DNA of 64,000 bases from Kiritimatiellia bacterium (GTDB taxonomy: Bacteria > Verrucomicrobiota > Kiritimatiellia > RFP12 > UBA1067). Of the stretch, positions 5,219 to 58,805 are shown in pieces. Made by a program: the position numbers and the translations under genes. Every line of letters starts with the position of its first letter. The stretch's first letter is position 1. The notes beneath the pieces were generated by a model. That model ran no database searches. It saw only the letters and a program-made list of their open reading frames with translations, and was not told where the DNA came from. The stretch lies in NCBI GenBank assembly GCA_035353175.1, contig DAOPZC010000003.1:62473-126472 (forward strand), written 5' to 3'.

Positions 5219-5251
5219 AACTCGTGCCTCCGTCTCACGTGGACAGCCGTC

Positions 5252-5815: not shown

Positions 5816-5830
5816 CCCAGCTCTCCTGCT

Positions 5831-6538: not shown

Positions 6539-6651
6539 AATCCGCTTATACTTGACACCACTCCGTTGCGTTTCCAGAAACGCCCCCTTTCAGCGCATTA
6601 TCAGAAACGGCAATAGCTTACCTAAACACCCCTGAAAGGTAAACCGCTTTT

Positions 6652-7467: not shown

Positions 7468-7484
7468 TGGCACCCCCTACATAA

Positions 7485-7579
7485 TGAGGAGTTAGGAATG
7501 AGGAATGCGAAGGTGGCGAATTCCTGCTGGTGAAAGAGGATCGTAACTCCTAATTCCTGACTCCTAATTCCTAATTAGC
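7485..7579. promoter_or_regulatory. AT-rich inverted repeat of AGGA-containing pentamers in the murA 3'UTR / zupT leader
   Basis: Arms at 7488-7504 (ggagttaggaatgagga) and 7548-7564 (tcctaattcctgactcc) are 15/17 complementary across a 43-nt spacer, with an extra partial copy at 7562-7575. Local GC is ~40% against a ~64% background. Confidence 0.3.
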
Positions 7580-8872
7580 TTAGTCGTTCACGCGCTCGAT
7601 GCTCGCGCCCAGCCGCCGCAGTTCGACCTCGACCGACTCGTAGCCGCGGTCGATGCTGCCCGCGTTGTGGATCTGGGTCTCACCCTTCGCGCAGAGCGCG
7701 GCGATCAACAGCGCCATGCCCGCCCGGATGTCGGGACTCGCCACGCGCGTGCCGTGAAGCGGCGCGGGGCCCGTCACCACCACGCGATGCGGGTCGCACT
7801 GCACGATGCGCGCGCCCATGCCGATCAGGTGGTCCACAAAGTACATGCGGCTTTCGAACATCTTCTCGAAGAAAAGCGTGGTGCCCCGCGTCTGCGTGGC
7901 CAGCACGATCAGCACGCTCATCAGGTCCGAAGGGAACATCGGCCACGGCCCGTCCTCGATCTTCGGGATCGCGTCGCCGAGGTCGTACGCCGTCTTGAGC
8001 CGCTGCCGGGCGGGGAGCTTGAGCGTCTTGGCCGCGCGGTCGATCACGCAGCGCACGCCGAAGCGTTTGAACGGCTTTTCCAGCGTCTCGAAATCGGCGG
8101 GCTCGATGTCCGCGATGGTCAGCTCGCCGCCGGTGACCAACGCCGCCGCCAGATAACTGCCCGCGTCGATGTAGTCCGGTCCGATCCGCTGCTCCGTGCC
8201 GTGCAGCGACTCGGCGCCCTCGATGGTCAGGCGGTTCGTGCCGAGGCCCTCGATCTTGCCGCCCATGGCGTTGATCATGCGGCAGAGATCCTGCACGTGC
8301 GGTTCGCACGCGGTGTTGTAGAGCGTGGTCGTGCCCTTGGCCAGCGCGGCCGCCATGATCAGGTTTTCGGTGGCGGTCACACTGGCCTCGTCCAGCAGGA
8401 TCCGCTGCGCCTCGAGGCGCTTGGCGGCCTTGAAGATGTACGTGCCGTTGGTGCGGACCGCCGCGCCGAGCTGGCGGAAGCCGTCGAGGTGGGTGTCGAT
8501 GCGGCGGCGGCCGATCACGTCGCCGCCCGGCGGATAGAGCTTGGCCGAGCCGCAACGGGCCAGCAGCGGCCCCGCGAACAGGATGGAGGAGCGCACCTTG
8601 CCGCAGAGCGCCCTGTTGAGATGTGTGCTCTTGACGCGCTTGGCGCAGATTCGGACCGTGTGTGCCTCGGCGTTCAGGTCGACGTCGGCGCCCATGTCGG
8701 AGAGCAGCTCCAGCATGGTGCGGACATCCGCGATGAGCGGCAGATTGCTCAACGTCACGGGCTCGGGCGTCAGCAGGCTCGCGGCCAGCATCGGGAGCGC
8801 GGCGTTCTTGTTGCCGGGCACGCAATGGACGCCGCTCACCGGCTTGCCGCCTTTAATGACAAATCGGGACAT
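7580..8872 (-). CDS. murA: UDP-N-acetylglucosamine 1-carboxyvinyltransferase
   Basis: MSRFVIKGGKPVSGVHCVPGNKNAALPMLAASLLT... is a canonical MurA N-terminus, ~430 aa. The ORF track extends 47 codons upstream to 9013, but the conserved start is the ATG at 8872. Confidence 0.9.
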   Translation of the reverse strand: MSRFVIKGGKPVSGVHCVPGNKNAALPMLAASLLTPEPVTLSNLPLIADVRTMLELLSDMGADVDLNAEAHTVRICAKRVKSTHLNRALCGKVRSSILFAGPLLARCGSAKLYPPGGDVIGRRRIDTHLDGFRQLGAAVRTNGTYIFKAAKRLEAQRILLDEASVTATENLIMAAALAKGTTTLYNTACEPHVQDLCRMINAMGGKIEGLGTNRLTIEGAESLHGTEQRIGPDYIDAGSYLAAALVTGGELTIADIEPADFETLEKPFKRFGVRCVIDRAAKTLKLPARQRLKTAYDLGDAIPKIEDGPWPMFPSDLMSVLIVLATQTRGTTLFFEKMFESRMYFVDHLIGMGARIVQCDPHRVVVTGPAPLHGTRVASPDIRAGMALLIAALCAKGETQIHNAGSIDRGYESVEVELRRLGASIERVND

Positions 8873-9009
8873 ATTTTGGGATTCGCTGGTTAAAAGGATC
8901 ACTCGCGCCCAAAGGCGCTGCTGAAAGGGTTCTGAAACACGGTTAGCAAAGCAAAAAACGGAGCAAAAGAGAATACAAAAAGGAGGCGCGACGCCGAATC
9001 GGAGCCGGA

Positions 9010-10188
9010 TCACCCGCCGTGGGGCTTCCCCATGCCCTTGACCTTCGCCTCGGCGGCTTTGACGGCCGCGTCATACAGCCCTTTGGCCCAGGCGGGGAGA
9101 CGCTCGCGCATTTCGGTGGAGGGTTTGCCTGCGGCGAGTTCACGTCCCGCTTTGTCTTCGACGCGGACCGTGAAACGGAGCGGATCGTCGCTGCGCACCT
9201 CCGCAATGGCCGCGCCCTCCGGGCCTTCGCTCTTGATAGAGTGGATGTCGACGGTGGCCCCGTGGTCGGCGTCGGGCGTCAACGCGGCGGCGACGGCCTC
9301 GGGCGTCATCGTGCCCGTATACGGCTCCGTGAAGTGCGCGAGAATCGTCGCGGCCGGGATGGCGGAGTGCACGTCGTAGGTCGCCGCGTCCGCCTTGAGT
9401 GTCTCGAAGCTGTCAAGCATGCCGACCGCGTTGCCGGCGGCGTCCATAACGGCCCCACCGCTGAATCCGCCGATGGAGCCGATCATCAGATGCAGGCGGG
9501 TGAGCTTGTCCATGCCCGTGCCGGCCTTCAGGCCGTAGCGGGCGATGACCCCTTCGACGGTGAAGAAATACTTGCCCAGCGGGTGCCCGAGCGCCCTCAC
9601 CTTCATGCCCGCCGGCGCGTCCGTCCGCAGCGGCAGCACCGCATCGCCCGCGCCCTCGACCTGAAGAAAAGCCAAGTCCTCCAAAGGATAAACCGCCAGA
9701 ATCTTCGCGATCTTCACGGTCTGCCCGTCCACCGTCACGCCGACCGCCGCGAACGGTTCGGCGAGTCCCTTGAACGCGTGGAAGCAGGTGACCGCCACGT
9801 CCTTGTGAACCAGGAACGCGACGCCCAGCCGCGCGCTGTTGCCCGCACGGTAATCTTTTTCGGAAAGGATGGTGAGGGCGAACGCCGCCCGCACGGCGCG
9901 CGCATGGAACGTCCGGTCGTCCAGCACGTCGGTGTCGGGGAGTCGGGGCGATAGGCCGAGCGGCTCGCGCCGGTTCATGGCCTCCGCCAAATCCCGGGAC
10001 GCGAACGTTTCTTTTTTGGCGAACGCCTCGCTCCGGCCGGCTTTACCCAGGCGCGCATAGAGCGCATCGTCCACGGGCCGTTCCACGCTCCCGCCCAGCG
10101 CCGGCGCGTCGGCGGACGCCGCCGTCGAGACGGCAAGTATCACCGCGGAGAACACGCGCGACACCACCCTGTTTGCGTCAGATCTCAT
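9010..10188 (-). CDS. secreted trypsin-like (S1 family) serine peptidase
   Basis: Signal peptide (VFSAVILAVSTAASADA). Catalytic triad context: VTCFHAF (His), DLAFLQVE (Asp), GSIGGFSGGAV (GxSGG Ser). Shine-Dalgarno GAGGGTGA upstream. Confidence 0.8.
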   Translation of the reverse strand: MRSDANRVVSRVFSAVILAVSTAASADAPALGGSVERPVDDALYARLGKAGRSEAFAKKETFASRDLAEAMNRREPLGLSPRLPDTDVLDDRTFHARAVRAAFALTILSEKDYRAGNSARLGVAFLVHKDVAVTCFHAFKGLAEPFAAVGVTVDGQTVKIAKILAVYPLEDLAFLQVEGAGDAVLPLRTDAPAGMKVRALGHPLGKYFFTVEGVIARYGLKAGTGMDKLTRLHLMIGSIGGFSGGAVMDAAGNAVGMLDSFETLKADAATYDVHSAIPAATILAHFTEPYTGTMTPEAVAAALTPDADHGATVDIHSIKSEGPEGAAIAEVRSDDPLRFTVRVEDKAGRELAAGKPSTEMRERLPAWAKGLYDAAVKAAEAKVKGMGKPHGG

Positions 10189-10197
10189 CCGTCACCC

Positions 10198-10770
10198 TCA
10201 AAAGCCGTACTTGCTCTTGACCGTCTCGAAGAGCCACTCCTTTTCCACTTCGGTCAACCCGACCCCGACATCTCGCCGTTCGATGCCAATGTCGACAGTC
10301 AGCCATCCGCCGCTGAGCTTGAGCGTCCGGATCTGCGGCAGCGTCAGCGACACCTGCCGCCGCTTGGGCAGAAAAGTTTTACTGAACGATCTGCTCTGCA
10401 TCGAATTCGGATCGATCTTGAAAGGATGACGGCCGGTGTCGTAATCGATGGAGGACGAATTGAGCACCAGCGTTTCGGGCACCGCCGGCCGCAGCAGGCA
10501 CACCAGAAAGAGGATCGCCATCACGCCGCCGGCCGTCCAAGCGATCAGCCAAAAAATCTGAAACGCGTCAGCCGCACCGACGTTTAGGCCTTTCTTGAAC
10601 AGGTCGCCGGCCACCCGCCACCAGCCGACCCCCCAACCGCCCAGCCACGCCATGAGGAAAACCGCGGGAAAAATCCGCATCGCCCCGTTCGACGGCAGGG
10701 GCAACACGTACCGCGGAAACCCCCGCTCATCCGTGGTCACGATAATTTTCGACTCTTGCGGCAACTGCAT
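10198..10770 (-). CDS. hypothetical membrane protein (2 TM)
   Basis: The ATG at 10770 is preceded by GAGGGGGG; the track starts at an upstream TTG. Two hydrophobic helices followed by a ~110-aa soluble tail. The gene ends 9 bp upstream of the peptidase gene, so the two probably form an operon. Confidence 0.55.
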   Translation of the reverse strand: MQLPQESKIIVTTDERGFPRYVLPLPSNGAMRIFPAVFLMAWLGGWGVGWWRVAGDLFKKGLNVGAADAFQIFWLIAWTAGGVMAILFLVCLLRPAVPETLVLNSSSIDYDTGRHPFKIDPNSMQSRSFSKTFLPKRRQVSLTLPQIRTLKLSGGWLTVDIGIERRDVGVGLTEVEKEWLFETVKSKYGF

Positions 10771-10918
10771 ATTCCGCCCCCCTCGTTGCACAGACAATAA
10801 CAAAGCCCCTTGCGCAATTCAACGCTTCGTGCCCGCCGCTGCGGGTTTGACCCGTCATCCTTGGCTATGTTATGTTTCGTTTATTATTTTCAGAAAACGA
10901 ACAAGGGAGACGGTTTTC

Positions 10919-13900
10919 ATGCTGGACCCGAGATACCGATCGACGCTCATTCTCGCAGCAGCCTTTTTCCTCTGCATCTCAACGAGTCGCTCCGAGCCGC
11001 CCAAAGCCCTCGCCGACGTCCGCGTCTTCGCGGTCTATGAGCCGGTCATGAGCCGCCAGGACGTCGAGCTTTTGGCGCGCGTCCATCCCGATTTCGTCTG
11101 CCGAGGCTGGTTCAAGTGGCACCACACCCCCGACTGGCGCGCGTACACCCCGCTCGCACAGGCCTGCGCCGAACAGGGCATTCTGCTACAGGGCGGCATC
11201 ACCCTCTCGGCGATCTATCCCGGCGAGAACGGCATGGACGACGCGGCCTTCCGCGATTTCGCAACCCACGGCACCGACGGGCAACCCTACCACTGCCGCA
11301 TGGCGGACAACGGCGGCTGGTACCAGCTCAGCCTCTATAACCCGAAAGTGATCGCGTATCTCAAGCGCGAGGTGCGCCTGCAGATCGACGCCGGCGCGGT
11401 CGGCATCTGGTACGACGAGATCGAAGGTTTCTACGACTGGAACCCGACCGAAGGCTACGACCCTTACGCCTGCGCCGCGTTCCGCGACTGGCTGATCCGC
11501 AAATACTGCGGCGGCCAAGGCTGGCGCGAGAACGACCCGCGCTGGCAGACGCAGTTCGGCATCGATCTCGCGAAACACGGCGGCACCATCCGCACCTTCG
11601 ACTATCTGCGCCACCTCCAGATCACGCCCGGCCGAGACGGTCAACCCCTCGCGGCCAATCCGGCGCAAGGCCACCCGCGCGCCTGGGCAACCTCTGCCAA
11701 CCCGCTCTACCGCGAGTGGGGCTTCGCGTGGGACCGCAAGGCCGCCGGCACCTTCCGTTTCGACACCGTGGCCGCGCTCTTTGCGGACATCCTCGCGGAT
11801 GCCGACCGCTACGCCCGCGAACGTTACGGACGCACGCTGATCAACACCTACAACCACAACGGCACGGCGCGCCCCGGCGTCGCTTTCCTCCAGCCGCACA
11901 ACGGCGCGCAGCCGCCGCTCCGCCACGGACGCCTCGACGGGCGCGCCAGTTACCTCACCTACTATGAGGATCTCATCGCCGATGCCGCGGGCCCTTGCCC
12001 CGGCCAGCCCGTCGTCTTCTTCGTGGACTGGCCCGGCGAGATCGACCGACTGGTCGCCCTGCCGCGCGCCGACCAGACCCACTTCTTCCGGATCTACATC
12101 CCCGAGGCGTATGCCGCCGGCGGCGAATTTGCCCTGCCGCTGCGCGGCTACTCCTATGTGGCCGCCCGGCAAGGCACGCTGGCCGCGCTCACGCGCATGG
12201 CCGACTTCTACCGCGAGTACGCGCCCTTCCTGCGCGGCTCGAAGCCTGGGGGCGCGGGCGGCCTCGTCCGCGATGAGTTCGACCGACTCACGGTCCGTCT
12301 CCGTTCGACCGCAGCCGGCACCGCCGTCCACATCGTCAACCACGCCTTCTCCACGCGTGACGTCTGGCCTTCGCCCCGCACCAACCTCTGTGTGACGCTG
12401 CCCTGGAGCGCCGCCGCGCCAGATTCCGCCTTCGCCGTCTCTCCCGATTTTCCTGACCAGCGTCCCGTGCCGGTATCGCTCAAAGACGGACAGCTCACGC
12501 TCGACGTCGGAACCGTCACCTGCAGTGCGCTCGTGCTGTTGCCCGAGCCCGATGCCCTGCGCCCGCTCACCGGGACCGCACCGAGCGGCACCCACATCGT
12601 CGACCCGCACGGCCGCGCGATGGCGGTCGCGCGCGACGGCCGCTTCACGCTCTGGCTGCCGCCGTCCGAAGGCGTCGGTCTCTGGCGCCGCCTGCTGGGG
12701 CGCGAGGCGTGCGCCACGCGCGAGCTGAAGTGCCTGGAAACCGGCGAGCGCCAGCCCGCGCGCGACGGCGCCGTTTTCGCCGCGCCGCCTGCGGGCGGCT
12801 TCGCCTCCGGCCTGTTGCTCGACGGGTTCGGCATTCCTCTGCGCCACACCGCGCTGACCTGCGGCACGCACCGCTGGCACACCGACGCCTGGGGCCGCTA
12901 CCGCGTGCCGTTGGCGCACGCCTCCGACGCACCGCTGACGGTCTGCGGCGAGGACGGGGCCGTGCACACGCTGGCCCTGTCCGACCGCTTCACCGCCCTC
13001 CGCCTCTTACCTGCCCGCACCCGCATCGGCGACTTCGCCGCATCGCAGGGCGGATACTGGGCCAACTGGCCCGACAAGGAGCGGCTCCGCGGCGTGATCG
13101 CGCTCGCCCGCGAGCGCCACCAAGAGCGCGACGCACTGCGCTGCACCTTCTCGCCCTCGCCATCCGTTCCGTGGTCGAACATCAACTCGCCCGCCTTCAC
13201 CCTCGAAACGGCGGACGCGGTCGAAGTGGTTTACGCAGGCGACGGCACAACGCGCACCGTCCACGCCGTGCTGCATGCGAACGGCCGCTTCTACCGCGCG
13301 CCGCTCGACCTCTCCGCTACAGGGTGGACCGTCAAGCGCATCGCGCTCGGCGAGTTTCGCGACGACCAGGGCGCGCCGTTCGACCCCGCCGCGCACACCG
13401 GCACCGCCGCCTTCCAGCTCGCACCGGCGGGCCTCGGCACCGCGCCCGCCACGCTCTGGCTGCACCGCGTCGCGCTCGTCACCGACACCCCCGTCGTGAC
13501 GCTGTGGCAGAGCGACGCCGCCTTTGACGACGCGGACGTCGACCACCTGCGCGCGGACCACCGCCCGCAACCGCCTCCGCCCCGCGCCGCAGCGCGGCAG
13601 CCGCTGGCGCGCTTCACCGACCCGGCCGCGCGCCACCTCGCCAACTGGGCCGAGAAGAGCGCGGCAGACAAACCGCTGGTCGCCATCGAGCGAGTGGCGC
13701 CGCCGGCCTCGCCGCCCTTCCTGCGGATCACCCTGGCTGCGGGCGAGTGCGCGTGGGGCAACGCCAACATTCCGCTGCCCGCGGACAAACTCGCCGGGAC
13801 GAGCGGCCTCGCCCTGCGGCTGCGCCACTCGCCTGCGACCGAGGATGTGACGGTCGCGCTCCACACGTCCGTCGACGGGAAAAACGCGTTCTTTCAGACG

Positions 13901-47799: not shown

Positions 47800-48224
47800 T
47801 GCGATTACTCCTTCCTTAGTCCGTGCGTTCCGAACCTAATACATCGCCATTTTAAGGCTTCCGGCGTATGCCGTCAATGCTGGGGGTTGCTGAGGGTCGC
47901 GGCAGAGGGTTGCGAGGACGGGCGCATCCTTGAGTCAGGCGGCTGATGCCCCGTCCATAGGGAGTCGATCAAGATAAGCGTGTTGGAATAGGAGCATCGA
48001 AATCGGCATCGGGATCGAATACCTTGCGATTCAATCACGATAGGAACCACGCTGGACTGCTCAAAATGGACGATTCCGATCCCGATATCGATAGCGATTT
48101 GGAGGGAGAGAAGACTGTCGGCATGGGCTGGCTAAGGAAAGAGAGAGGACGGAGTTGCCGAAACCAGAAAACAGAAATCAGTTCAGGCGCATGGTCCTCG
48201 AACGCTGAGACGCGAAACCGGCAG

Positions 48225-48340: not shown

Positions 48341-50440
48341 CTATTTCTGCAGCAGCACGCCGGCGTAACCGCAAGGGATCACCACCTTGCCGGCGTGGAA
48401 ATCGGCGATGTCCGGATTGCCGGAGAATTTCCAAGCGGTCAGCAGCGCGGGACGCTCGGCATCCGTGAAATCGTAAAGCGCGGCGCGACGGTCGATGCGG
48501 CTGGTGAAGACCACCCGCTTGCCATCCGAACGCGGAATGCCGTTGATCGCGCCACGCCCTCCGTCGCCCGGGAACGCCGCCGGCAGCTTGAAGAATTTCC
48601 ATGTGCTTCCGTCCGCCGGGTCGCCTTCGCCAGGCCGGAGCAGCACGTAACTGCCGTGCGCGCTGGCGATGGACAGCCCGTCGCGGAAGGTGCAGATCCC
48701 ATTCGAAAGGCTCAGCCGGTTCACCGTCGTCTCAACGCTTTGCCGCGGCGCGGGAAGGGCGGAGAGGTCAAACCACTTGACGGAGGTGTTGGCGTTGTTG
48801 AACGCGAAATGACGTCCGTCGGGCGAACCGTCCGCGAGGTACTTGTCCCACCCCGGACACGATCCGCTGTGGAGCGCGTGCTTGAACTCCGGCAACGTCC
48901 GGACGTCATACAGCTCGAACCCGCGCCGGTCGGAGCAGAACAGCCAACCCGGCACGGCCGGCTGGACGTAAAGCGCCAGGTTCTTTTCACCGGAGATTCT
49001 CGGCAGGCGCGCGACTTCCTTGAAGCGCGCCGCGCCGTCCAGCTCGTACACGCCGAAGCCGTCATGTCCTTCGGCCGTGTACAGGCGGTCCCCTGCCACC
49101 TTCACATCGAACACCTGGTCGTGCCCCGGCAGTTTGGCGAGCTCCTTGAGCCCGCCGTTGTTCGGCAGAATCTGCAGGGCATAAAGCCCCGCGTCGCCGC
49201 AGGCGGCGTAGACCACATCGCCCCTCACCGCGACGCCGCGCGCCTGGCCGACGTCGCGCGGCTTCCACACGTGCCAGGCGGACGCGTCCACGGAATACGG
49301 TTCGCGGGAGGACGCGTTTTGGGGCGGCGCGCCGCGGTCGAACGGCTCCGCCTTCGCGCGCGGACACGGAATCGCGAATACGCCCGCGCCGTTCACGGCC
49401 GCGTACACGACGCCGTCGGCCACAGCCAGGGATCCGACGCAATCGCTCGGCCACTCCGGATGCTTCGGGTTCGGCGAAACCCAGCGGTCGAGCGTGCGGG
49501 GATTGGCTTTGTCCGAGATGTCCACGGCGAACACGCCGTTGTGCGTCTGGGCGGCGACCAGCAGGTCGCCGGACGTGCGGGGCGTCCACATGTCGAGCCC
49601 GCGCGCGTAGAACGGCGGATAGTCCACGCGGCCGACGCGTTTCGGATGCGCCGGGTCCGCGACGTCATAAATATCGAGCCCGTGCCCCATGCCGCCGCCG
49701 TCGGCGGGGCCGCCGAAACGTTTCATCTCGGAGGTTATCACGCCGCCTGACACCTTGCGGTGCTTGGAATGGTGTCCCGTAGCGGCGTACAGGTACTTGC
49801 CCTGCAGCCACACGCCGTCACCGTAACCGTAGAGTTCCACATGGTCGGTCTGGCGGATGGCCTTCATATCGTGCGCGTCGAAGACGGTGACGTACGCCGA
49901 TCCCCAGTCGCCGGAATAAAGCCACCCGTCGCGGTAGACGACGCTTTGGGACTCGTCCGTCTTACGCATCGCGATATGGCGCGGATGGTCCGGATCGGAA
50001 ACGTCGATGAACTCCACACCGTTCTGGCGCTGCCCGAGGAAGCAGACGTCGCCCGCGACGTCCACGCCGGTCGCGAGTTCGCAGCAGTCGAAACGGGAAC
50101 GGATACGCGGCTTTTGCGGCTTCGTCGCGTCGACGATCCACAGTCCGTATTCGCGCGTGGAGACATACGCCATCCCCTTTTGCACGGCGATCTGTCGGAC
50201 TCCGCCCAAGCCGTCCACCTCGCCGAGTTTCTGCGGCGCAAGCGGTTTCGAAACGTCGTAGACAGACAAACACGAGCCTGCGCCCGCATACAGCTTATCG
50301 CCCTCGAGGCACAGCGCCATCGCCTTGTCGCCGATTCCTTCCACCCGGAACGCCGCGCCGAAAACTTTTACGTCTTCGGCCTTCGCCACCGCCAAAAACG
50401 CCACCGCGAACGAAATCAAAAACGCCACCACTGTCTTCAT
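48341..50440 (-). CDS. secreted LVIVD-repeat beta-propeller protein
   Basis: Shine-Dalgarno AAGGAGG; signal peptide. Repeated blades of the LVIVD type (G.AYVS..E.GLWIVDATKPQKP; DIYDVADPAHP; GVFAVDISDKANP; GFELYDVRTLPE). Confidence 0.75.
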   Translation of the reverse strand: MKTVVAFLISFAVAFLAVAKAEDVKVFGAAFRVEGIGDKAMALCLEGDKLYAGAGSCLSVYDVSKPLAPQKLGEVDGLGGVRQIAVQKGMAYVSTREYGLWIVDATKPQKPRIRSRFDCCELATGVDVAGDVCFLGQRQNGVEFIDVSDPDHPRHIAMRKTDESQSVVYRDGWLYSGDWGSAYVTVFDAHDMKAIRQTDHVELYGYGDGVWLQGKYLYAATGHHSKHRKVSGGVITSEMKRFGGPADGGGMGHGLDIYDVADPAHPKRVGRVDYPPFYARGLDMWTPRTSGDLLVAAQTHNGVFAVDISDKANPRTLDRWVSPNPKHPEWPSDCVGSLAVADGVVYAAVNGAGVFAIPCPRAKAEPFDRGAPPQNASSREPYSVDASAWHVWKPRDVGQARGVAVRGDVVYAACGDAGLYALQILPNNGGLKELAKLPGHDQVFDVKVAGDRLYTAEGHDGFGVYELDGAARFKEVARLPRISGEKNLALYVQPAVPGWLFCSDRRGFELYDVRTLPEFKHALHSGSCPGWDKYLADGSPDGRHFAFNNANTSVKWFDLSALPAPRQSVETTVNRLSLSNGICTFRDGLSIASAHGSYVLLRPGEGDPADGSTWKFFKLPAAFPGDGGRGAINGIPRSDGKRVVFTSRIDRRAALYDFTDAERPALLTAWKFSGNPDIADFHAGKVVIPCGYAGVLLQK

Positions 50441-50482
50441 TGTTCTTCCTCCTTACCGCACACCTGACACCCCGTCATTCCA

Positions 50483-52930
50483 TCATCGTTTCGCGGCCTG
50501 CTGCTGCCGAAGCGTCCCGAGCTCTTGCCGGAACCGTTCGAAGAACAAGTCCGCGCGCTTGTTTTCGTCGGCCCACTTCTCGCTGTTGCCGATGAAATAG
50601 AGCCGCGTCCGGCACGCGTCGATCGTGTCTTTGAACTGCGTGGCGTCGCGGGCGAGCACGTCGCCGCTGAACACCTCCACCACGTCGGCCTTGCGCCGCA
50701 GGCTGAACGTGCGCTCGCCGGCCGCGCGCGTGTGGATCGCCAGAAAACTCTTGTCGGCGTAAACGATCTCGTCGGCGTCGCAGAAAAGATGGCAGCCGGC
50801 GCGGCGGGCGATGCCGCGCAGGAGATCGGCGGGCGCCACCACCGACCCGATCCAGATGTCCGTGGCCTTCGAGGTGCAGCGCCTGACCATGGCGGGCTGG
50901 CCGCCCTCTTCGAAACGCGCGAGGACCTCTCCCTCCTCCGACCCGTAGAACCGTTCCGGCAGGTCGCGCGCGGCAGGAACTTGCTGTTTGACGGCCCCGC
51001 TCGCGGGATCAGTCACCCATTCCGGCCGCTCGAAGCTGCCGAAAGCCCGCTGGGGATCGAACCCCTCGAAGGCGCGCGCCCCGGCCTCGGTCAGCTTCAT
51101 GTTCAGCTTGCGCCGCTGGCCCGCCTCGGAATTCAGCGTGAAGCCCAGCAGATCCTTCGTGTATGCGACATCCCGCTCGGGAACCCGGTCCGGATTGAAC
51201 ACGCCGGGCGCGAACATCCACACCAGCACCGCCCCTCGGCGGCGCAGCCGTTTCTCAATCAGCCGGCGCTCGGCATCGCTCAGGCTGAAACAGTTGAGCA
51301 TCAGATACAGCTTGTAGCGCTTTGCATCGCTTGCGAGGATGTCGTCCAGCTCGTAGTAGTCCACCGGCGCGCCCAGGCGGCACGTCTCCTGCACCTTGAA
51401 CGCGTCGATCAGCGACGTCGTGACCGGCCAGGGAGGTCCGGTCAGGATGCTGTCGAGGTCCACCACGGCCGCGATATCCGTATCGCTTGTCCGGTCAAAG
51501 CCCATCGCGGCTTCGCCGCAGTGCTGCATGCGGTCGAACAGCGCGAGGACCGGCTCGTGGTGATACCACTCCTTGCCCATCTGGAACCACCAGCCGTTGC
51601 CGCCCTCGCAGAGCTGATGGGCGAACTCGCGCTGCAGGCAGGCCTGCGTTTCTTCGAGGCTCGGCGGCCGGCCGTACATTGAAGGATTGCCCGGCGCCGG
51701 CTCGGAGAAGTTGGTGCGGATGTCCGACTCGCTGATCCAAAGCTTGCCGTGCTGCTTGAGGCTGGCCATAAGGAAGCGGATGCAGGCGTGCTCGCCGGGG
51801 CCGCGGCGGTTGTACTGGGGCGGGCCCGACCAGAAGTCCACGTCCGGCGAGCGCAGCAGCTCTTTCAGGGTCGCCTGGCCGCCTTCGAGCAACCAGTGAT
51901 TCTGCAAGTAACCGTGGAACATGCCGACCAGCTGCTCGCGGTTGCAGGCCTGCTTCACGGCGTGCGAAAAGATCAGCAGGCTGTCCTCCATGACCTTGTT
52001 GTGCACATAGTAGTAGTCGCGGTTGCGCTGGCCCTTGTCGGCGCCCCAGAACACGCCCGCCTCGGTGGCTTTGCGGCTGAGCGGATCGGGCGGCAGCGCG
52101 GTATCAAAGTCGACCGCGGGATCGTTCCAGGCCGCTCGCAGCTTGCCGACGTCGCCGCCGTATTTGACGCGCAGATAATTGCGGAACGCCTTCAGCATCG
52201 GCTTGGAGAAGTCCAGGGCATACTTGTCGTGGTCGTAGTCGCCCCAGTAGTACCACTCCTCCGTGCCGCCGCCGCAGATGAAGTAGCCGATGATGTTCTT
52301 CGAATAGGCCGACTGCCGGACATGCGTGACGTAGTTGAAAAGCGCCTCGGCCGTTTTCTGCCGCCACACCCCGGAGGCGAAACTCGGGTAGCCGCGTTCC
52401 TCCAGCGGCCGGTCGGTCATGGCATACCATTTGGTGAAATGGTCGCGGGCGCCGTCGTTGAACGTGAGCGTCTCATCCGGATAGTCGCGCGCAAAGTTCC
52501 GCGGGTTGCAGAGATAGAGCCGCAACAGGATGCGCGCGTTCGGCACGCGCTCAAGGAAACGGGCCAGTTGCCCGTCGAGCCGTTTGAACGTCTCCTCCTG
52601 CTCGCCGGGCCACCCGACGCTGCCGACCATTTCGAAATGGACCGGGAAGTCGCGGTCCGCGATCTGCCCGATCTGCTCCAGCGTTCCCGCGCAGCGCGTG
52701 TAGATCATCGGCCCGTAAGGCTTGCCGTCGATCACAAGGGTCGGCACGCCCTGCACGGGCTTGACCCGCGCGATGGACTGGGGCCGGTCGGTGGGCTGCG
52801 CCTTGAAGGCCGGCAGCCGGGCGTCGCTGCCGGGCAGAAAGCCGACGTCAGAGGCCCGCGCCTCGGCGGCCGCCAGCGCGCATGATAGAAAACACAGGCC
52901 GAAGGAAAAGGGCAACGCATGTTTCTTCAT
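50483..52930 (-). CDS. secreted GH42-like glycoside hydrolase
   Basis: Signal peptide. FSKPMLKAFRNYLRVKYGGDVGKLRAAWND matches the GH42 'A..FR.WL..KYG....LN.AWG' block. WYYWGDYDHD and a TIM-barrel-like N-terminal half. Confidence 0.7.
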   Translation of the reverse strand: MKKHALPFSFGLCFLSCALAAAEARASDVGFLPGSDARLPAFKAQPTDRPQSIARVKPVQGVPTLVIDGKPYGPMIYTRCAGTLEQIGQIADRDFPVHFEMVGSVGWPGEQEETFKRLDGQLARFLERVPNARILLRLYLCNPRNFARDYPDETLTFNDGARDHFTKWYAMTDRPLEERGYPSFASGVWRQKTAEALFNYVTHVRQSAYSKNIIGYFICGGGTEEWYYWGDYDHDKYALDFSKPMLKAFRNYLRVKYGGDVGKLRAAWNDPAVDFDTALPPDPLSRKATEAGVFWGADKGQRNRDYYYVHNKVMEDSLLIFSHAVKQACNREQLVGMFHGYLQNHWLLEGGQATLKELLRSPDVDFWSGPPQYNRRGPGEHACIRFLMASLKQHGKLWISESDIRTNFSEPAPGNPSMYGRPPSLEETQACLQREFAHQLCEGGNGWWFQMGKEWYHHEPVLALFDRMQHCGEAAMGFDRTSDTDIAAVVDLDSILTGPPWPVTTSLIDAFKVQETCRLGAPVDYYELDDILASDAKRYKLYLMLNCFSLSDAERRLIEKRLRRRGAVLVWMFAPGVFNPDRVPERDVAYTKDLLGFTLNSEAGQRRKLNMKLTEAGARAFEGFDPQRAFGSFERPEWVTDPASGAVKQQVPAARDLPERFYGSEEGEVLARFEEGGQPAMVRRCTSKATDIWIGSVVAPADLLRGIARRAGCHLFCDADEIVYADKSFLAIHTRAAGERTFSLRRKADVVEVFSGDVLARDATQFKDTIDACRTRLYFIGNSEKWADENKRADLFFERFRQELGTLRQQQAAKR

Positions 52931-52995
52931 AGGAGGATGTCTTGGCAGAAGGACCCTGCAACCAGAGCGTTTTTACAAATTGTGTAGCCTATGTT

Positions 52996-53065
52996 CGGCT
53001 CGACGCAGCCTCGCCCTCCATGTAAAAACGGTCGAATTTCTGGAGGGCGAGGCTGCGCCGAGCCG
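52996..53065. repeat. long near-perfect inverted repeat (25-bp stem, 20-nt loop)
   Basis: Left arm CGGCTCGACGCAGCCTCGCCCTCCA (52996-53020), loop tgtaaaaacggtcgaatttc, right arm TGGAGGGCGAGGCTGCGCCGAGCCG (53041-53065); 24/25 complementary. It lies in the 190-bp spacer between two minus-strand genes. Confidence 0.6.
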
Positions 53066-53119
53066 TTTCGCAAGGGACGCACCGTTCAAACAAACAGCCG
53101 CAAAATAAGTTAACCCGCT

Positions 53120-56100
53120 CTAGCGCACGTCGGCCGCCAGCTTCGCGATCTCGTCGGCGGACAGCACGCGCCGATAGACGCGCACGTCGTCGAGGCAGCC
53201 GCGGAAGCGCGCGCGGTCCATGTCGGCGCTGTGCGCGCCGACGGTGATGGCGTTGCCGGGATTGATGAAGCCGCGGCGCTCGAGCGTGCCGACATCCTTG
53301 CCGTTCACATAGAGACGCATGACCTTGTTGTCGAAGGTCGCGGCCACGTGCGACCACGCGTCGACGGGCAGCGGCTCCGGACCGATCAGCGAATGGCTCC
53401 AGTTCTCGCGCGGCACCTGCCAGTCGGGCCGCCCGTTGCCGAGCCCGAGGCGGTAGCCGTCCGTGCCGGTCGACACCGTGTTGAGCATCCAGCGGTCGCT
53501 CTGTCCCTTTTCGGAGGGTTTGCACCAGAGCGCCACGGTCACGCCGCCAGGGCTGAAGAACGGCGCGGGGACAGTCGCGGTCGCGCCGCCCTCGCCACAG
53601 CGCAGCACCTGACCGCCGCGGCCGGCTTCGCGCACGACGCCCTCGCACTTGAGATTGCAGCCGTTCGGCGAGGCGTCCGCCAAGAGACCGTCGGCCGTCT
53701 GGGACTCGAAGGTCCAGTCGGCCAGCAGGTCGCCGGTGATGCGGATCGACTGCCACGGCATGCGGCTGCCGAAGCCGGCGCGCACGGCCTCGTAGCGCCG
53801 CTGCGGCGGAGGCAGCCCCACGTCTTCGGGAATGATGTCGGTCACCGCCTCCGGCGCCCAAGCGGTGCAGAAGACGCGCTTGATGGCGTTGACGAACGTG
53901 AAGCCCGTGCCGGTGGTCGGCTCGATGTAGTGGCCCTCGCCGAACTCGGTCCAGTTGTCGAAGACGACGATCTTGCTGTCCCAGCGCCCCGCCGGCTTGG
54001 CGTCGACGAGCGCCTTGGCGTCGCGGCAGGCGGCCTCGAAGTTCTCGGCCTTGGGGTCTTTGATGTAGTTGCCGTTGCCGCGTTTGACGCGGCCCCACGG
54101 GCGGTCGTCGCGGCCCATCATCACGTTCGGGATGTCCGGCACGGGGGCCGTGCTGGCGGCGCGGTCGATCCACGTTTGCTTGTAGCGGCTGAGCACGTCC
54201 GCGTGATCGCGGTAAGAGAGCCCCGCCGGGTCCTCGCCGACCGTCTTCAGGCCGGAGGGCGTGACCCCGTAGCCGGAGACCGCGTCCCACCCGCTGGCGG
54301 CGATGTCCGCGCCGAGCTTACCCTGCGCCGCGTCCATGCAGGCGATCACGCGCAGGCCGCTGAAGCCGGCCCTGCGGCACTGCTCGCGCATCTTGTCGAG
54401 CGCGACCTTGGTCTTCTCGGGCCCGCCCAGCTGGGCGAGCATGACGCGCGGCTGCCACACGAAGAGGACCGGCTTGTTCTCGATCTTGAGGTACGAGGGA
54501 TGGGTGAAGTAGTTCTTGATCCAGAACGGCAGCACGTTGTCGAGCAGGTCGGCCTCGTCCTTCACGCCTTTGGCGCAGCCGTTCTCCCACATGATGGTGA
54601 AGGTGAACTGGTCGCGGTATTTGGCGTTGAGGAGTCCCTCGTGGATCGCGTGGCCGAGGCTCTGGCTGATCGTCGGCTCGAAATCGGCGCGGTACCAGCA
54701 GTAGATGAAGCCGTTGATGCCGTGGTCGAGCGCGTACTTGATGTGCCAGTCGGCCACCTCGGGCGTGCCCTCGTCATACCAGCCGATGGCCGGACGTTTC
54801 TCCGGCCACGGCTCGATCCTCTTCCAGCCCCAGTGCGTGCCTTCCTTCCAAAGCGCGCAGTAGTGCATCAGGCTGATATAGTCGGTTTTGGCCGGCTGCG
54901 GCTGCGGCACGTAGCCGGTCTTGGTCATCTCGGGCCACGGCTCGACCTTCAGCGCGAGCTCCTGCACGCTCGTCTCCGCGCCCTTGGAGGCGATTGCCAC
55001 GCGGACGGTGTAGGTGCCGGGACGCTCGGCCCGGATGTGCCAAGTCGCCAGGTCGAAGTCATCCATGCCCAGCCATGCGATGTTCCGCTTCGCGCCGCCG
55101 ATGACCTTGACACCCTTAGGAACCTCAAGCCGCGCGGTGATCCCTTCGGCTTCGCCGCCGACGTTCTGGATGCCGGCCACCACGCTCTCCTCGCGGCCGG
55201 GACGCAGCTTGGCGCGGCCGGCGGCGAGCGAGCGGATGTAGAAGACGGGGGTCCCGATCGGCCGATCCGCCAAGGCCAGCTTGCGGATGCGGACCGGCGC
55301 CGAGACGCCGGAGAAGCTCACCGCGAGGCGACGGAGCTTGCCGGTCCAAGCGTCGGACATCGTGCCGGAAACGACCGTGGGCCGCCCGCCTGACTGCGGC
55401 TGGAAGCTGATCGAGCCCGAGCCCGTGTCGGTCGTGAAGTCGAGCGTGCCGGTCACGCCGCGCCCGCCCGCCTCCACGTCGAGGCAGAGGAACGGATACG
55501 GCGCGAGGTCGACGGACAGCGTCGGGCTCACCAGCATCGCCGTGGCGCCGGGGAAGTCGACGGCGAGCGCGGCCTTCTCCTCTTTGCAGGCCGCGCCGTT
55601 CTTGGCCTGCCAGCCGGCCCACGCCGCGGGGCCGCCCAACACGCGGGCCGCGCCTTGGCTTTCGGAGCCGCCGAAGAGAGAACGCCACAGCGAAGCGAAG
55701 AAGCCGGGCTTGGATTCGGCGGATGCCTCCTCAGCGGGCAGGCCCGCGAGGAGCGCCGCGCGTTCCAGGCTCGGGTTGAAGAGGTCGAGACTCGCCAGCT
55801 CGCCCGCGATCGGGCCGACCTGCACGGGCTTGGAGCCCGGATTGATCCGGCCGAAGCGCGGCTGGCTGAAGGTCTCGCCGTTGATGGTCATCTCCATCGA
55901 CTGGCCGGTCCACGCCGCGCGCACGTCGTACCACGTGTTCGTCTGAATCGCCGGGCCGCGCAGCCGGGTCTCCCACTTGCCCTCGATCTGGACGAAGAAG
56001 ACCAGGTTCCCGCCGTCGCCGGGATTGTCCACGCGCAGCAGATACTCGCCGTCCTTGACGACCAGGTTCTGGGCCCAGCTCTTGTGCGTGTCGAGGCGGA

Positions 56101-56311
56101 AACGGCAGCCGATTTCCAGCCCCGGCCGCAGGCGCAGCTCCGGGCGGTCGGCGGCTTCGACCGGCTTGCCGGCGGAGAGGCGCTTGTCCTGACGGTCGAG
56201 CGCGAAAACGGGCTTACCGGCCGGCTCCGCAGCATCCGCGCGCGGCGCGGCACAGGTTAAAAGCGCCAAAGAAAGCGTGAAAACAGTCCCGATGTTTCTG
56301 ATTGCCTGCAT
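53120..56311 (-). CDS. secreted multidomain protein: N-terminal LamG-like domain, central WbsX/GH99-like glycoside-hydrolase domain, C-terminal LamG-like domain
   Basis: Shine-Dalgarno GAGGGGA precedes the ATG at 56311 (MQAIRNIGTVFTLSLALLTCAAPRADA). Central IGWYDEGTPEVADWHIKYALDHGINGFIYCWYRAD matches the WbsX-like (PF14307, GH99-related) family. C-terminal ...FFSPGGVTVALWCKP...WSHVAATFD...LYVNGKDVG...DDVRVY is LamG-like. The track extends 142 codons upstream of the real start. Confidence 0.75.
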   Translation of the reverse strand: MQAIRNIGTVFTLSLALLTCAAPRADAAEPAGKPVFALDRQDKRLSAGKPVEAADRPELRLRPGLEIGCRFRLDTHKSWAQNLVVKDGEYLLRVDNPGDGGNLVFFVQIEGKWETRLRGPAIQTNTWYDVRAAWTGQSMEMTINGETFSQPRFGRINPGSKPVQVGPIAGELASLDLFNPSLERAALLAGLPAEEASAESKPGFFASLWRSLFGGSESQGAARVLGGPAAWAGWQAKNGAACKEEKAALAVDFPGATAMLVSPTLSVDLAPYPFLCLDVEAGGRGVTGTLDFTTDTGSGSISFQPQSGGRPTVVSGTMSDAWTGKLRRLAVSFSGVSAPVRIRKLALADRPIGTPVFYIRSLAAGRAKLRPGREESVVAGIQNVGGEAEGITARLEVPKGVKVIGGAKRNIAWLGMDDFDLATWHIRAERPGTYTVRVAIASKGAETSVQELALKVEPWPEMTKTGYVPQPQPAKTDYISLMHYCALWKEGTHWGWKRIEPWPEKRPAIGWYDEGTPEVADWHIKYALDHGINGFIYCWYRADFEPTISQSLGHAIHEGLLNAKYRDQFTFTIMWENGCAKGVKDEADLLDNVLPFWIKNYFTHPSYLKIENKPVLFVWQPRVMLAQLGGPEKTKVALDKMREQCRRAGFSGLRVIACMDAAQGKLGADIAASGWDAVSGYGVTPSGLKTVGEDPAGLSYRDHADVLSRYKQTWIDRAASTAPVPDIPNVMMGRDDRPWGRVKRGNGNYIKDPKAENFEAACRDAKALVDAKPAGRWDSKIVVFDNWTEFGEGHYIEPTTGTGFTFVNAIKRVFCTAWAPEAVTDIIPEDVGLPPPQRRYEAVRAGFGSRMPWQSIRITGDLLADWTFESQTADGLLADASPNGCNLKCEGVVREAGRGGQVLRCGEGGATATVPAPFFSPGGVTVALWCKPSEKGQSDRWMLNTVSTGTDGYRLGLGNGRPDWQVPRENWSHSLIGPEPLPVDAWSHVAATFDNKVMRLYVNGKDVGTLERRGFINPGNAITVGAHSADMDRARFRGCLDDVRVYRRVLSADEIAKLAADVR

Positions 56312-56489
56312 GAATTTTCCCCTCTTGTTCAAACCCCAATATCGGCAAGACCATAACAAATCCGGCGCGGCGAAAGCGATAGAAAACCTGTGAACCCCGT
56401 GCGTCGCGTCGTTCCTCCAGAAGCCGATGCCGCCCGAGCGCTCGCCTAGCGCCACACCTTGAAACGGTCGCCGAACGGTCTGGGCGGTT

Positions 56490-58805
56490 TTACTGCACGC
56501 GAGGCGGCGGGACCGCCTGGCCGGCGCACTGGGCGGCCTGCTCCTGCCGGCCGTACGTGCCGTAGAACGCGGCATTGCCGTCGAGCCACACGCAAAGCCG
56601 CAGCCGGTCGTCATCCGACAGCCGAATGCGGCCCCTGTGGCTGTTGCCGTCGAGAACCTTGAGCAGCGGGCTCTCGTCGGCACCCATATGGCCCGGCAGG
56701 GTGACGGCCTGAGCGATGCTCTTGTCTCCCCATTCATACCACCGCACCTGCCCTTTCAGGCTGTTGTACGCTTTGCTGAACTCGCCTTCGGGCGTGCCGG
56801 TCAGAATGAGCGTGCCGCGCTGCGGCCCTTTCGCGCCGTCGTGACAACGCACGCAATGGCGGTCGAGCACCGGCTGCACCAGCCGCGGAAAACACCACGG
56901 CCGCGTACCGTCCGGCCCGGCGAGTATCTTCGACAGCGCATGGCGCGACGCGAGCGGCTGACGATCCGGCGGCGGGCTCTCTGGCCGCTCGTGGCAACCC
57001 ACGCAGCTTCGGCGCTCCCCGGGCTGCAGATAGACCGCGCTGCGCATCGTGTGAACGGCCCGGCCTGACGCGTCCACCGCCTGAAAGAAAAGCGGCCGGC
57101 GCGCAGGCGCACGAAAGAAGGCCGAGCCGTCGGACTCAACCGGCACCGTGCCCAGCAGCATACGCGCACACTCCGCATTGGCGTAGCCGATGCGCGGCTG
57201 GTTGGCCACGTGCGTCTCGCTCTTGGGCAGCAGCTGAAAGATCCGCAGGCTGCGAACCGGACGGTCAGACGGCAGCGGCGTCAGGCTGGCACGCACGTCG
57301 CTGAGGACAAGCTCCCCCTCGTCGCCCAAAGCCGGGTCACACGAACGGGTCGGTGCCGGCGGTTTGGGGCGCGGGCCCAGAGGCGTCGGATACATCGACG
57401 AGATCCCCGGCGCGCGATACAGCAGCTCCATGTTTCCGAAGCGGTCGAAGTAGTAAAGGCCCGTCTCGCCGTCGCGCACGACCTTCGGCCCCATGCCCGG
57501 CAACGGATCGAAGCTGAACGAGACCAGGTAATAGTCCTCCGACAGCGGACAGGGGCTGTGGAAATAGCTGTCGGGCCAGCCGGCGGCCTCCGGAAAACAG
57601 ACCTCCGGCGTGAGCACTTCCAGCGAATCGAAATTGTCCTCGCCGCTCTTCGGGTCGAGGCTGGTCCGCGAGGGATCGACCACCACCAGCGAGCCGCCCA
57701 CGGCGGCGTGATGCGCGCCCGCCACAAACACGATCCGGTTCGAGCCGGGAATCGCCCGCGGCTGATAGCAGGCGTTGATCCGCATGGTGTAGTTGCCGAA
57801 GAGAATGCTCGGGCTGGTGCCGTCCGGGTTGCTCGTCCAGATACCGTGAAACTGGGCGGCCGAGCGATCGACGTAGTCCCAGCGGCTATAGGCGATGCGC
57901 CCGTCGGCGAGCACGGACGGATGCCACTCGTTCGTCTCGTGCCAAGAAAGCGTCTGCACGCCGCTGCCGTCGCCGTTCATCCGGTGCAGGGTGTAGGTCG
58001 GCAGCGGCTCCCACGGATTGTGGCATCGTCCGAAGCCGCCGCGCCGCGTCGACATAAACGCCACGCCGCCGTCCGGCAGCGGGCACGGATCGAAATCGTC
58101 GTTCGGCCCGTCGGTCAACTGCCGCAGCCCCGAACCGTCGGTCTGCACGGTGTAGAGGTGAAAGCAGCGACGCTGAGGCGAACGGAAGTCGGGCTTCTCC
58201 GGCGCGCGCTCGGCATAGGCGAAATAGATTGTGTGCCCGTCCCAGCCCAGCGAAAGCGTCGTGAAATTGCCGCGCGGAAGCCGCCCGGCGATCAGATCGC
58301 GCGTCCTCAGCGACCGTCCTGGCGTCTCCAGCACGTACACGCCGCCGCCCGCGATATCGCCGTAGTCGTAATAATAGCCCAAGTATTCGTGCAACATTTG
58401 GGTGACGAACCGCCGTCGCTGCATGAAGACCACCGGACGAGCACCCAGCAAAGGATTCTTCAGCGCCGCCTCGCGGCCAATCCAGCGGATGCCGCGGTAC
58501 AGGGACAGCCGCTCCGCCTCGGGGAGCGTCGCGGACTTCGCCGCTGCGGTTTGTAGTTTCGCCAGGTCGGCCCGTTCGCGGGTGAGCTCCAGAGGCCGGG
58601 GGGCGCGACTGAGCCCGTCCAGCAGGCGGGCGACGCGCTGACACGCGAGCTGGATCGCCTCGGGCGACTGTGCGAGGCGACCGGCCCGTTTCTCCTGCGC
58701 CGCCCAGTCCGCCTCCACGGTCGCGCGAAAGGCCGCGTCATCGTCAACCGCGCCCGCCAGTACCGCAACCGACACGAGGGCGACCAGAATTATTTTCCCG
58801 TTCAT
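56490..58805 (-). CDS. secreted TolB/PD40-type beta-propeller protein with a C-terminal di-haem (2x CXXCH) cytochrome-c-like region
   Basis: Shine-Dalgarno AAGGGAAGAGG precedes the ATG at 58805 (MNGKIILVALVSVAVLAGA). PD40-like blades (LTDGPNDDFDPCPLPDGGVAFMSTRRG; WHPSVLADGRIAYSRWDY; TSNPDGTSPSILFGN). C-terminal CVGCHE and CVRCHD are haem-c attachment motifs. Confidence 0.75.
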   Translation of the reverse strand: MNGKIILVALVSVAVLAGAVDDDAAFRATVEADWAAQEKRAGRLAQSPEAIQLACQRVARLLDGLSRAPRPLELTRERADLAKLQTAAAKSATLPEAERLSLYRGIRWIGREAALKNPLLGARPVVFMQRRRFVTQMLHEYLGYYYDYGDIAGGGVYVLETPGRSLRTRDLIAGRLPRGNFTTLSLGWDGHTIYFAYAERAPEKPDFRSPQRRCFHLYTVQTDGSGLRQLTDGPNDDFDPCPLPDGGVAFMSTRRGGFGRCHNPWEPLPTYTLHRMNGDGSGVQTLSWHETNEWHPSVLADGRIAYSRWDYVDRSAAQFHGIWTSNPDGTSPSILFGNYTMRINACYQPRAIPGSNRIVFVAGAHHAAVGGSLVVVDPSRTSLDPKSGEDNFDSLEVLTPEVCFPEAAGWPDSYFHSPCPLSEDYYLVSFSFDPLPGMGPKVVRDGETGLYYFDRFGNMELLYRAPGISSMYPTPLGPRPKPPAPTRSCDPALGDEGELVLSDVRASLTPLPSDRPVRSLRIFQLLPKSETHVANQPRIGYANAECARMLLGTVPVESDGSAFFRAPARRPLFFQAVDASGRAVHTMRSAVYLQPGERRSCVGCHERPESPPPDRQPLASRHALSKILAGPDGTRPWCFPRLVQPVLDRHCVRCHDGAKGPQRGTLILTGTPEGEFSKAYNSLKGQVRWYEWGDKSIAQAVTLPGHMGADESPLLKVLDGNSHRGRIRLSDDDRLRLCVWLDGNAAFYGTYGRQEQAAQCAGQAVPPPRVQ

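Follow-up and report, generated by a model that had tools for sequence, protein, structure and literature searches.

Results

Geometry and setting of the hairpin

In the window, by which we mean the whole 64-kb stretch of Kiritimatiellia DNA that was analysed, a long hairpin at positions 52996-53065 separates two genes for glycoside-hydrolase-like proteins, and the question arises whether it is a signal of this operon or a repeat that came to lie there. The initial annotation had offered three candidates: an RNase III processing or stability element, a REP/MITE-like element, and a protein-binding palindrome. An inverted-repeat search recovered the hairpin exactly as it had been described, with 25-nt arms, 24 of 25 arm positions paired (96%), and 20 nt between the arms. 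The left arm, CGGCTCGACGCAGCCTCGCCCTCCA, occupies 52996..53020 (+ strand); the AT-rich loop of 20 nt occupies 53021..53040; and the right arm, TGGAGGGCGAGGCTGCGCCGAGCCG, occupies 53041..53065 (- strand). This hairpin was the longest and best inverted repeat within the 64-kb window, in which no second copy of the 25-mer arm was found (0 expected by chance). The sole mismatch on the + strand is A·C at 53003/53058, which is G·U on the - strand; hence, 25/25 positions pair in the sense-strand RNA of both flanking genes. RNA folding, which had been suggested as a check, gave about -58 and -52 kcal/mol for the - and + strands of the 70-mer, respectively. When the 70-mer was folded as DNA, the values were -34.5 kcal/mol for the - strand (z = -10.9) and -32.8 kcal/mol for the + strand (z = -8.9), and none of 200 shuffles folded as well.

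The upstream gene (56737..53120, - strand) encodes a Laminin_G_3 and Glyco_tran_WbsX protein according to Pfam (LamG/WbsX), and the alignment to the orthologue in L001 places its true start probably near 56320. The downstream gene (52930..50483, - strand) encodes an 815-aa protein that has no Pfam match of its own and has distant homologues with Glyco_hydro_42. Because both genes are on the - strand, the hairpin lies in a 189-nt intercistronic spacer. Its earlier placement in the 3' UTR of the LamG/WbsX gene and the 5' leader of the GH42-like gene was thus correct, and the element even enters the last codons of the upstream gene. The complete spacer folds into one long imperfect hairpin (z = -5.1). 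No Shine-Dalgarno sequence was found before the 815-aa gene (52931-52945), where the sense strand reads CATCCTCCT immediately before the ATG.

The remark that the hairpin lacks a U-tract and is not a textbook intrinsic terminator also stood. No U-tract adjoins it on the - strand, which is the sense strand, and the + strand has only TTT on the 3' side. A stem of 25 bp and a loop of 20 nt differ from the 5-12 bp stem, short loop and U-tract of intrinsic terminators, and a terminator consensus scan did not call the hairpin. Furthermore, Rfam covariance models gave no relevant match in the window at E <= 10.

A segment at 52965..52977, 18 nt outside the left arm, was complementary at 12 of 13 positions to the 5' half of the loop (53021-53033). 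The two segments are interleaved with the stem, as a pseudoknot-like or alternative pairing (p = 0.005 in the window). The related locus L060, in another genome, retains a 7-nt version of this pairing with a paired T>C / A>G difference. As a family-wide pseudoknot the pairing was rejected, since p <= 0.05 was reached in only 4 of the 37 family dimers described below.

Dispersal of the arm sequence in related bacteria

The initial annotation had proposed a search for further copies of the arm. We searched contigs, with one genome per species, for an exact 20-mer of the arm, and at least 119 genome stretches were matched. About 95 or more of the matched loci came from at least 24 assemblies of the PVC superphylum, which among the listed matches were labelled Kiritimatiellae, Kiritimatiellales, Lentisphaerae/Lentisphaeraceae, Victivallales, and Verrucomicrobiota. 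The arm, although single-copy within the 64-kb window, is therefore dispersed in related genomes; in one MAG, Kiritimatiellae Zod_Metabat.16, at least 25 loci with at least 48 units were found. The few listed matches in other phyla extended over the 20-mer only and were chance-like. At least 12 family copies stood at the ends of contigs, where a repeat that interrupts assembly would be expected.

Comparison of the loci indicated that the conserved entity is the 25-mer CGGCTCGGCGCAGCCTCGCCCTCCA, which has sharp edges, whereas loops and flanks are unrelated among loci. The 25-mer hardly varied between assemblies whose labels name different orders and classes. The right arm of the window hairpin, read on the - strand, is exactly this consensus, and the left arm differs from it by one base (G8>A). 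The same G8>A variant was also present in L051, L102, and L121.

Other collections were also searched. Metagenome scans with flank-specific and loop-specific patterns of the window sub-type yielded no copies, a scan of viral contigs for the repeat yielded none, and a plasmid search gave only a chance 30-nt match. Sixteen representative family loci had no Rfam match at the gathering score. In the papers searched we found no report of this sequence, nor of REP/MITE families in Kiritimatiellae, Lentisphaerae, or Victivallales.

Structure of the 25-nt unit

The unit, which can be written as CGGCTC-N9-TCGCCCTCCA, was analysed in a set of 161 units collected with strict flanks. Each unit has a (T)GGAG tag at its 5' end and an imperfect palindrome behind it, an order of parts that is also that of the GTAG-tagged REPs of proteobacteria; on the + strand, the right arm of the window hairpin consists of the tag TGGAG and the palindrome GGCGAGGC-TGC-GCCGAGCC. 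The unit folds as.(((..(((...)))..)))....., a stem of 3+3 bp interrupted by a 2x2 internal loop, with CTCCA unpaired. The unpaired tag (TGGAG at the 5' end, or CTCCA at the 3' end of the other strand) is invariant. It reads GGAG at the position where described REP superfamilies have GTAG or CGTC, and is a variant of the canonical tag.

Among units, differences are seen in the central nine bases, for example GGC-GCA-GCC, AGC-ACA-GCT, GCG-AGA-CGC, GCC-ACA-GGC, and ACC-GCA-GGT. At the inner stem, positions 7-9 x 13-15, 92.6% of cells were paired compared with 70% in shuffles (0 of 500 as high), and all three pairs varied on both sides. As the outer 3-bp stem is invariant, this covariation supports the inner stem only. 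The hairpin of a lone unit is weak (-3.4 kcal/mol), no better than shuffles. The G8>A change in the left arm of the window hairpin breaks the middle pair of the inner mini-stem of that unit.

A cluster of unit-like sequences was also noted in L009, where 42-nt tandem repeats with CGGCTCGCGAGACGCTCGCCCTCCA lie within a 1210-aa ORF (2079-2240). They represent either REP variants clustered in frame or a coding repeat that resembles the unit by coincidence.

Arrangement and genomic placement of the units

In the window, both unit tags point toward the spacer, so that the dimer is tail-to-tail (TT). The clustered units of the family comprised 33 TT, 15 HH, and 3-4 direct arrangements. The TT spacer measured 19-23 nt in 31 of the 33 dimers, with a mode of 22, and the spacer sequences differed. 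A reverse-complement partner was found downstream for 51% of units and upstream for 17%; about a third had neither, and degenerate partners were observed beside many seeming singletons. The partners of a dimer often differ in sub-type, which weakens the long hairpin while each unit retains its own mini-stem.

Most units (132 of 161, 82%) were intergenic according to a crude GC3-based gene caller, and most of the others were in over-extended ORF starts. Elements occupied 40% of convergent, 17% of tandem, and 15% of divergent spacers (chi-square p = 0.001); family elements thus lie mostly at gene 3' ends and are depleted in divergent, promoter-bearing spacers. The 114 adjoining genes contained 145 Pfam families. 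The protein-binding palindrome proposed at the outset, if understood as a locus-specific operator, is difficult to reconcile with this placement, because the same sequence stands beside unrelated genes and mostly at their 3' ends.

The neighbouring genes were examined further by Pfam scans of 114 + 150 ORFs from about 0.8 Mb, leaving out ORFs that overlap units. These were ordinary genes together with a few toxin-antitoxin and similar small cassettes. As a separate observation, PIN, MazE, nucleotidyltransferase, PD-(D/E)XK, and AAA_14/DUF4143 genes recurred among low-GC3 ORFs near units.

These data bear on the possibility that the hairpin is an RNA element of this operon, namely an RNase III site, a 3'-5' exonuclease barrier, or a U-less terminator, selected to set the level of LamG/WbsX relative to that of the GH42-like protein. 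RNase III substrates include stems of comparable length and stability. The position between two co-directional genes, the 25/25 pairing of the sense strand with its one G·U, and the enrichment of the family at gene 3' ends all agree with an RNA function, and the Correia hairpins of Neisseria bind RNase III and are cleaved or protected (PMC2649163). However, this sequence is found in either orientation at about a hundred loci that are unrelated to one another, and in tandem contexts the strand that folds better was sense in 9 cases and antisense in 10. The family thus has no sense-strand bias that would point to selection at the RNA level; the G·U in the window, which we had considered as a sign of such selection, is most simply a coincidence and was rejected as evidence. 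Together with the missing U-tract, the lack of an Rfam match, and the lack of a hairpin at these genes in the closest relative compared, these results make an operon-specific RNA element unlikely, whereas a secondary, incidental effect of the hairpin on the mRNA is possible.

A longer composite element at the gene end

The dimer in the window is carried by a longer palindromic element of about 160 nt (52965..53126), whose extent was defined by homology to L060 with an uncertainty of ±3 nt at the ends. Its outer inverted ends are imperfect: AGAGCGKKTTWAC. Between the window and L060, the arms were identical at 49 of 50 positions, the remaining element at 75%, and the sequence outside at about 40%. 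Under the divergence of the element itself, this excess identity of the arms had P = 1e-5; accordingly, the arms are constrained or homogenised relative to the rest of the element.

We had considered L060 as an orthologous locus. This reading was dropped, since its flanking genes, encoding a glucuronyl esterase and a pyrimidine nucleoside phosphorylase, are unrelated to those of the window; L060 therefore represents a second insertion of the composite element. In both genomes the terminal block GCGCTAGAGCGG holds the TAG stop of the upstream gene, which for the LamG/WbsX gene lies at 53120..53122 (- strand). The homology of LamG/WbsX to its L001 orthologue ends a few codons before this TAG. 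Judging from these alignments, the composite element has replaced the 3' end of the LamG/WbsX gene, that is, its last codons and stop.

L001 was the closest relative compared (88% amino acid identity). The gene order in the window is WbsX-[REPIN]-815aa-LVIVD (48341-56737), whereas that in L001 is WbsX-LVIVD-815aa (4484-12448), and the window REPIN is located at the junction where the two orders depart from each other. No hairpin was found between the corresponding three genes of L001, which has the arm sequence after a different gene. With another gene order and no hairpin at these genes, L001 does not provide a clean empty site, and the REPIN may have caused the change of gene order or may have arrived later. 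For the first ~34 codons of LVIVD in L001 the window has no equivalent sequence, so the window LVIVD protein may differ from that of L001 at its N-terminus or lack this part.

Just downstream of the LVIVD gene in the window, we observed another inverted repeat (47996-48098; ATCGAAATCGGCATCGGGATCG) with 22-nt arms that are 82% complementary and 59 nt apart. Its sequence is unrelated to the REP unit.

Other composite repeats were seen in the family. A sub-family of composite palindromes of about 135 nt (L041:5920-6080, L022, L034, L083, L096, L098, and L001:3505-3620) has an outer inverted repeat, GAATGGCGCTAAGATAAGC, around a heterodimer of a consensus unit and an AGC-ACA-GCT unit with a partly conserved 22-nt spacer, cctgcggatttgcttgagaaa. 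In Kiritimatiellae Zod_Metabat.16, a non-coding repeat of about 250 nt (L031, L054, L058, L081, L097, L109, and L110; 82-92% identity) contains an HH dimer, a conserved 29-nt spacer, and about 100 nt conserved downstream.

RAYT-like genes associated with the units

A tblastn search with E. coli RayT against all family loci gave weak matches, two of which lay amid units (L112 and L085). The ORFs at these two loci bear the motifs MPDH(I/V)HLF and KWEYVRQNPVR. Among their homologues (P0076-P0090), one is named 'REP element-mobilizing transposase RayT' in its source and one has Pfam Y1_Tnp. A profile of this clade, from which the E. coli protein was left out, matched PDB 4ER8 (TnpA-REP) over nearly the whole domain with E 8e-13; the second-best matches, 2XM3 and 2F4F (IS200/IS605 transposases), were far behind. 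In NCBIfam the best family was REP_Tyr_transpos (NF047646; E 1e-14 to 1e-16, below the equivalog cut-off), and the clade also fell below the curated cut-off of Pfam Y1_Tnp. Throughout the clade, the HUH histidines and the catalytic Tyr were invariant, as was the Asn that follows this Tyr by four residues.

Subsequently, the positions of units relative to these genes were determined. L112 has one unit 31 nt upstream of the RAYT gene, one inside, and two downstream (16 and 54 nt). The loci L128, L132, and L133 were retrieved by protein similarity alone. In L128, two units precede the gene, one dimer lies within it, and another dimer follows at 36 nt; in L132, a dimer lies 6 nt past the gene, and a third unit is also present; in L133, two units precede the gene and four are within it. 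In these four loci, flanking units are 6-110 nt from the gene, and a unit within the RAYT gene was also found in L085. No units were found around the clade members L131 and L127, and only a degenerate one was found at L126. A RAYT gene was present in 2 of about 95 loci matched by the arm pattern, as expected for a single-copy gene, and none was present within the 64-kb window.

Within the RAYT-like frame, REP units or dimers were located at L112:3299-3838, L085:219-764, L128:610-1152, L133:139-783, and L126:3001-3513. All five occupy one fixed linker, between YLKERITKRL and WxWQxDCWDTQ, and are read through in frame as LEGEAAPSR, GSAQPRPP, or RLGAASPS. The arrangement varies by gene, being a single unit, a TT dimer, an HH dimer, or four units, and the clade members P0078 and P0081-P0087 have no insert.

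Two further features of these loci were noted. At L112:3999-4700, a VapB/VapC-like (PIN domain) toxin-antitoxin cassette with a promoter-like site (TTGACA-16-TATGAT) adjoins the RAYT gene, with equally oriented REP units at either end of the cassette. In L085, a different direct repeat of 36 nt, GCGCCATGGCGGGCGCGCCTCCCGCCGGCGCGGCGC, stands on each side of the RAYT-like gene (180-218 and 830-875) and may be a second repeat family.

The association with Y1/HUH genes is also informative about a classical MITE, that is, a deletion derivative of a DDE-type IS whose 25-bp arms would be terminal inverted repeats and which would move by cut-and-paste with target-site duplication. The window element resembles a MITE in being small (70 nt for the core and about 160 nt for the composite), non-coding, and dispersed, with terminal inverted repeats. 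However, no direct repeats adjoined the arms in any of 37 dimers, single and tandem units were common, no IS-length repeat adjoined the units, and neither a DDE nor a recurrent transposase was detected by Pfam among the 264 ORFs within 1.2-3 kb of units, which cluster instead at Y1/HUH RAYT-like genes. We therefore regard a MITE in this classical sense as very improbable. The REP/MITE-like candidate of the initial annotation was right, as the arm is dispersed, mostly extragenic, present in dozens per genome in related bacteria, and physically linked to RAYT-type genes.

Neisseria uptake sequences occur as inverted pairs downstream of genes, which is a similar arrangement. A host-level DNA signal of that kind, such as an inverted pair of DNA-uptake sequences or a site for a nucleoid or regulatory protein, could account for a 25-mer conserved via a host factor and nearly invariant across differently labelled orders and classes, but it is highly improbable given the low density (a single dimer in the 64-kb window and tens per genome in other assemblies, compared with about one uptake sequence per kb), an inner-stem covariation that indicates a folded single strand and speaks against base-specific recognition of a duplex, and the tight RAYT association, which is a sufficient explanation. 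Readings as an integron attC, a CRISPR, a dif or recombinase site, or an uptake sequence were dropped as unfit in size, symmetry, density, or arrangement.

Discussion

Taken together, the dispersed units and the RAYT-like genes that they flank and enter lead us to conclude that the window hairpin is very probably a REPIN, an inverted TT pair of 25-nt REP units, belonging to a RAYT-linked family of PVC bacteria. It is an ordinary REP/REPIN element and not an operon-specific signal.

By analogy with TnpA-REP of E. coli (PMC3479197) and the REPINs of Pseudomonas, the predicted RAYT would bind the folded, single-stranded unit with its tag. It would then cut and join DNA and thereby spread dimers in trans, leaving no target-site duplication. 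The E. coli enzyme requires the 5' GTAG both to bind and to cleave, and within this tag A3 and G4 are free for pairing with the CT cleavage site (PMC3479197); the A and G of that tag are also kept in the GGAG tag here. At the locus studied, the composite element of about 160 nt landed in the last codons of the LamG/WbsX gene, giving it a new TAG stop and widening the spacer. As the flanking genes are co-directional, the element is probably transcribed, and the 25-bp stem could then have incidental effects on the mRNA, by hindering 3'-5' exonucleases, by attracting RNase III, or by weak termination. From general RNA biology and the Correia precedent (PMC2649163), the transcribed stem might also slow polymerase or ribosomes.

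A more far-reaching proposal, which we put forward as speculation and consider rather doubtful, is that these sequences represent an undescribed GGAG-tagged REPIN-RAYT system, with a near-invariant 25-nt unit in assemblies of Kiritimatiellae, Lentisphaerae/Victivallales, and Verrucomicrobiota, in which dimers recurrently occupy one in-frame site in the RAYT linker. If it were true, and if the intragenic copy were conserved and functional and not a repeated accidental insertion, it would add a new wrinkle to RAYT biology, for example an enzyme that senses or regulates its own gene via its own substrate. It would also be evidence of long-term vertical persistence of REPINs outside Proteobacteria.

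For the annotation of the window, the identification of the hairpin as a REPIN replaces a regulatory story with a simpler one, in which repeat DNA, selfish or domesticated, happened to insert where a glycoside-hydrolase-like gene ends. More generally, PVC bacteria, which have been little studied, gain a REP/RAYT pair. As a practical marker, the 25-mer interrupts MAG assemblies at contig ends and could serve for genome typing or for following REPIN populations.

Comparison with known systems

Among small dispersed elements, the Correia elements (CREE/NEMIS) of Neisseria are the best functional analogy for a 25-bp stem in an intercistronic spacer. They are co-transcribed and have inverted ends of about 26 bp, and their RNA hairpin is cleaved by RNase III or blocks it (PMC2649163). 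They differ in their length of 100-155 bp, in their conserved core, in duplicating a TA target, and in having no RAYT, whereas the present family has a 25-nt unit, unrelated spacers, no target duplication seen, and a RAYT association.

The IS200/IS605 elements with TnpA (Y1) share with the present family a related HUH/Y1 fold, imperfect hairpins with a short guide or tag, and the absence of terminal duplications. Their hairpins, however, are the ends of an autonomous IS with its own transposase gene, whereas the repeats here are dispersed alone and few loci have a transposase gene (2 of about 95).

Rickettsia palindromic elements (RPE) and the intragenic REPs of Opitutus terrae are in-frame palindromic inserts in coding sequences that lengthen the protein by 20-30 residues (PMC3733652). 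The LEGEAAPSR and GSAQPRPP peptides in the RAYT genes and the new stop codon of the LamG/WbsX gene resemble these inserts. The sequences and hosts are different, and the window element replaces only the last codons and the stop.

The closest match is the REP/REPIN-RAYT group, comprising REP/BIME of E. coli with TnpA-REP, the REPINs of Pseudomonas fluorescens, and the GTAG/CGTC superfamilies. GTAG repeats have been reported in a verrucomicrobium, Opitutus terrae (PMC3733652). Published REPs form HH and TT homo- or heterodimers with spacers of equal length and unlike sequence, and their singletons are decayed dimers; dimers are nested in longer palindromes, copies lie at gene ends, and REPs flank RAYT genes (PMC3733652, PMC3116915, PMC5581495). 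As in these systems, the unit of the family described here is an imperfect palindrome of small size, and an unpaired variant tag stands at its 5' foot. Further shared traits are tens or more copies per genome (counted here in related genomes), most of them outside genes, HH and TT dimers that are able to form a single long hairpin and are nested in longer palindromes, dimer spacers alike in length and unlike in sequence, singletons that resemble decayed dimers, some copies at the ends of genes or within them in frame, and units flanking a Y1/HUH gene with conserved HUH, Tyr, and Asn (PMC3733652, PMC3116915, PMC3479197, PMC5581495). It differs from known REPs in that the tag is (T)GGAG and not GTAG/CGTC, and in the very short stem of the unit (3+3 bp around a 2x2 internal loop). 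The family occurs in PVC bacteria of the Kiritimatiellia/Lentisphaerae type, and the RAYT clade is distant, below curated cut-offs. Finally, five members of this clade hold REP units in the RAYT frame at one fixed site.
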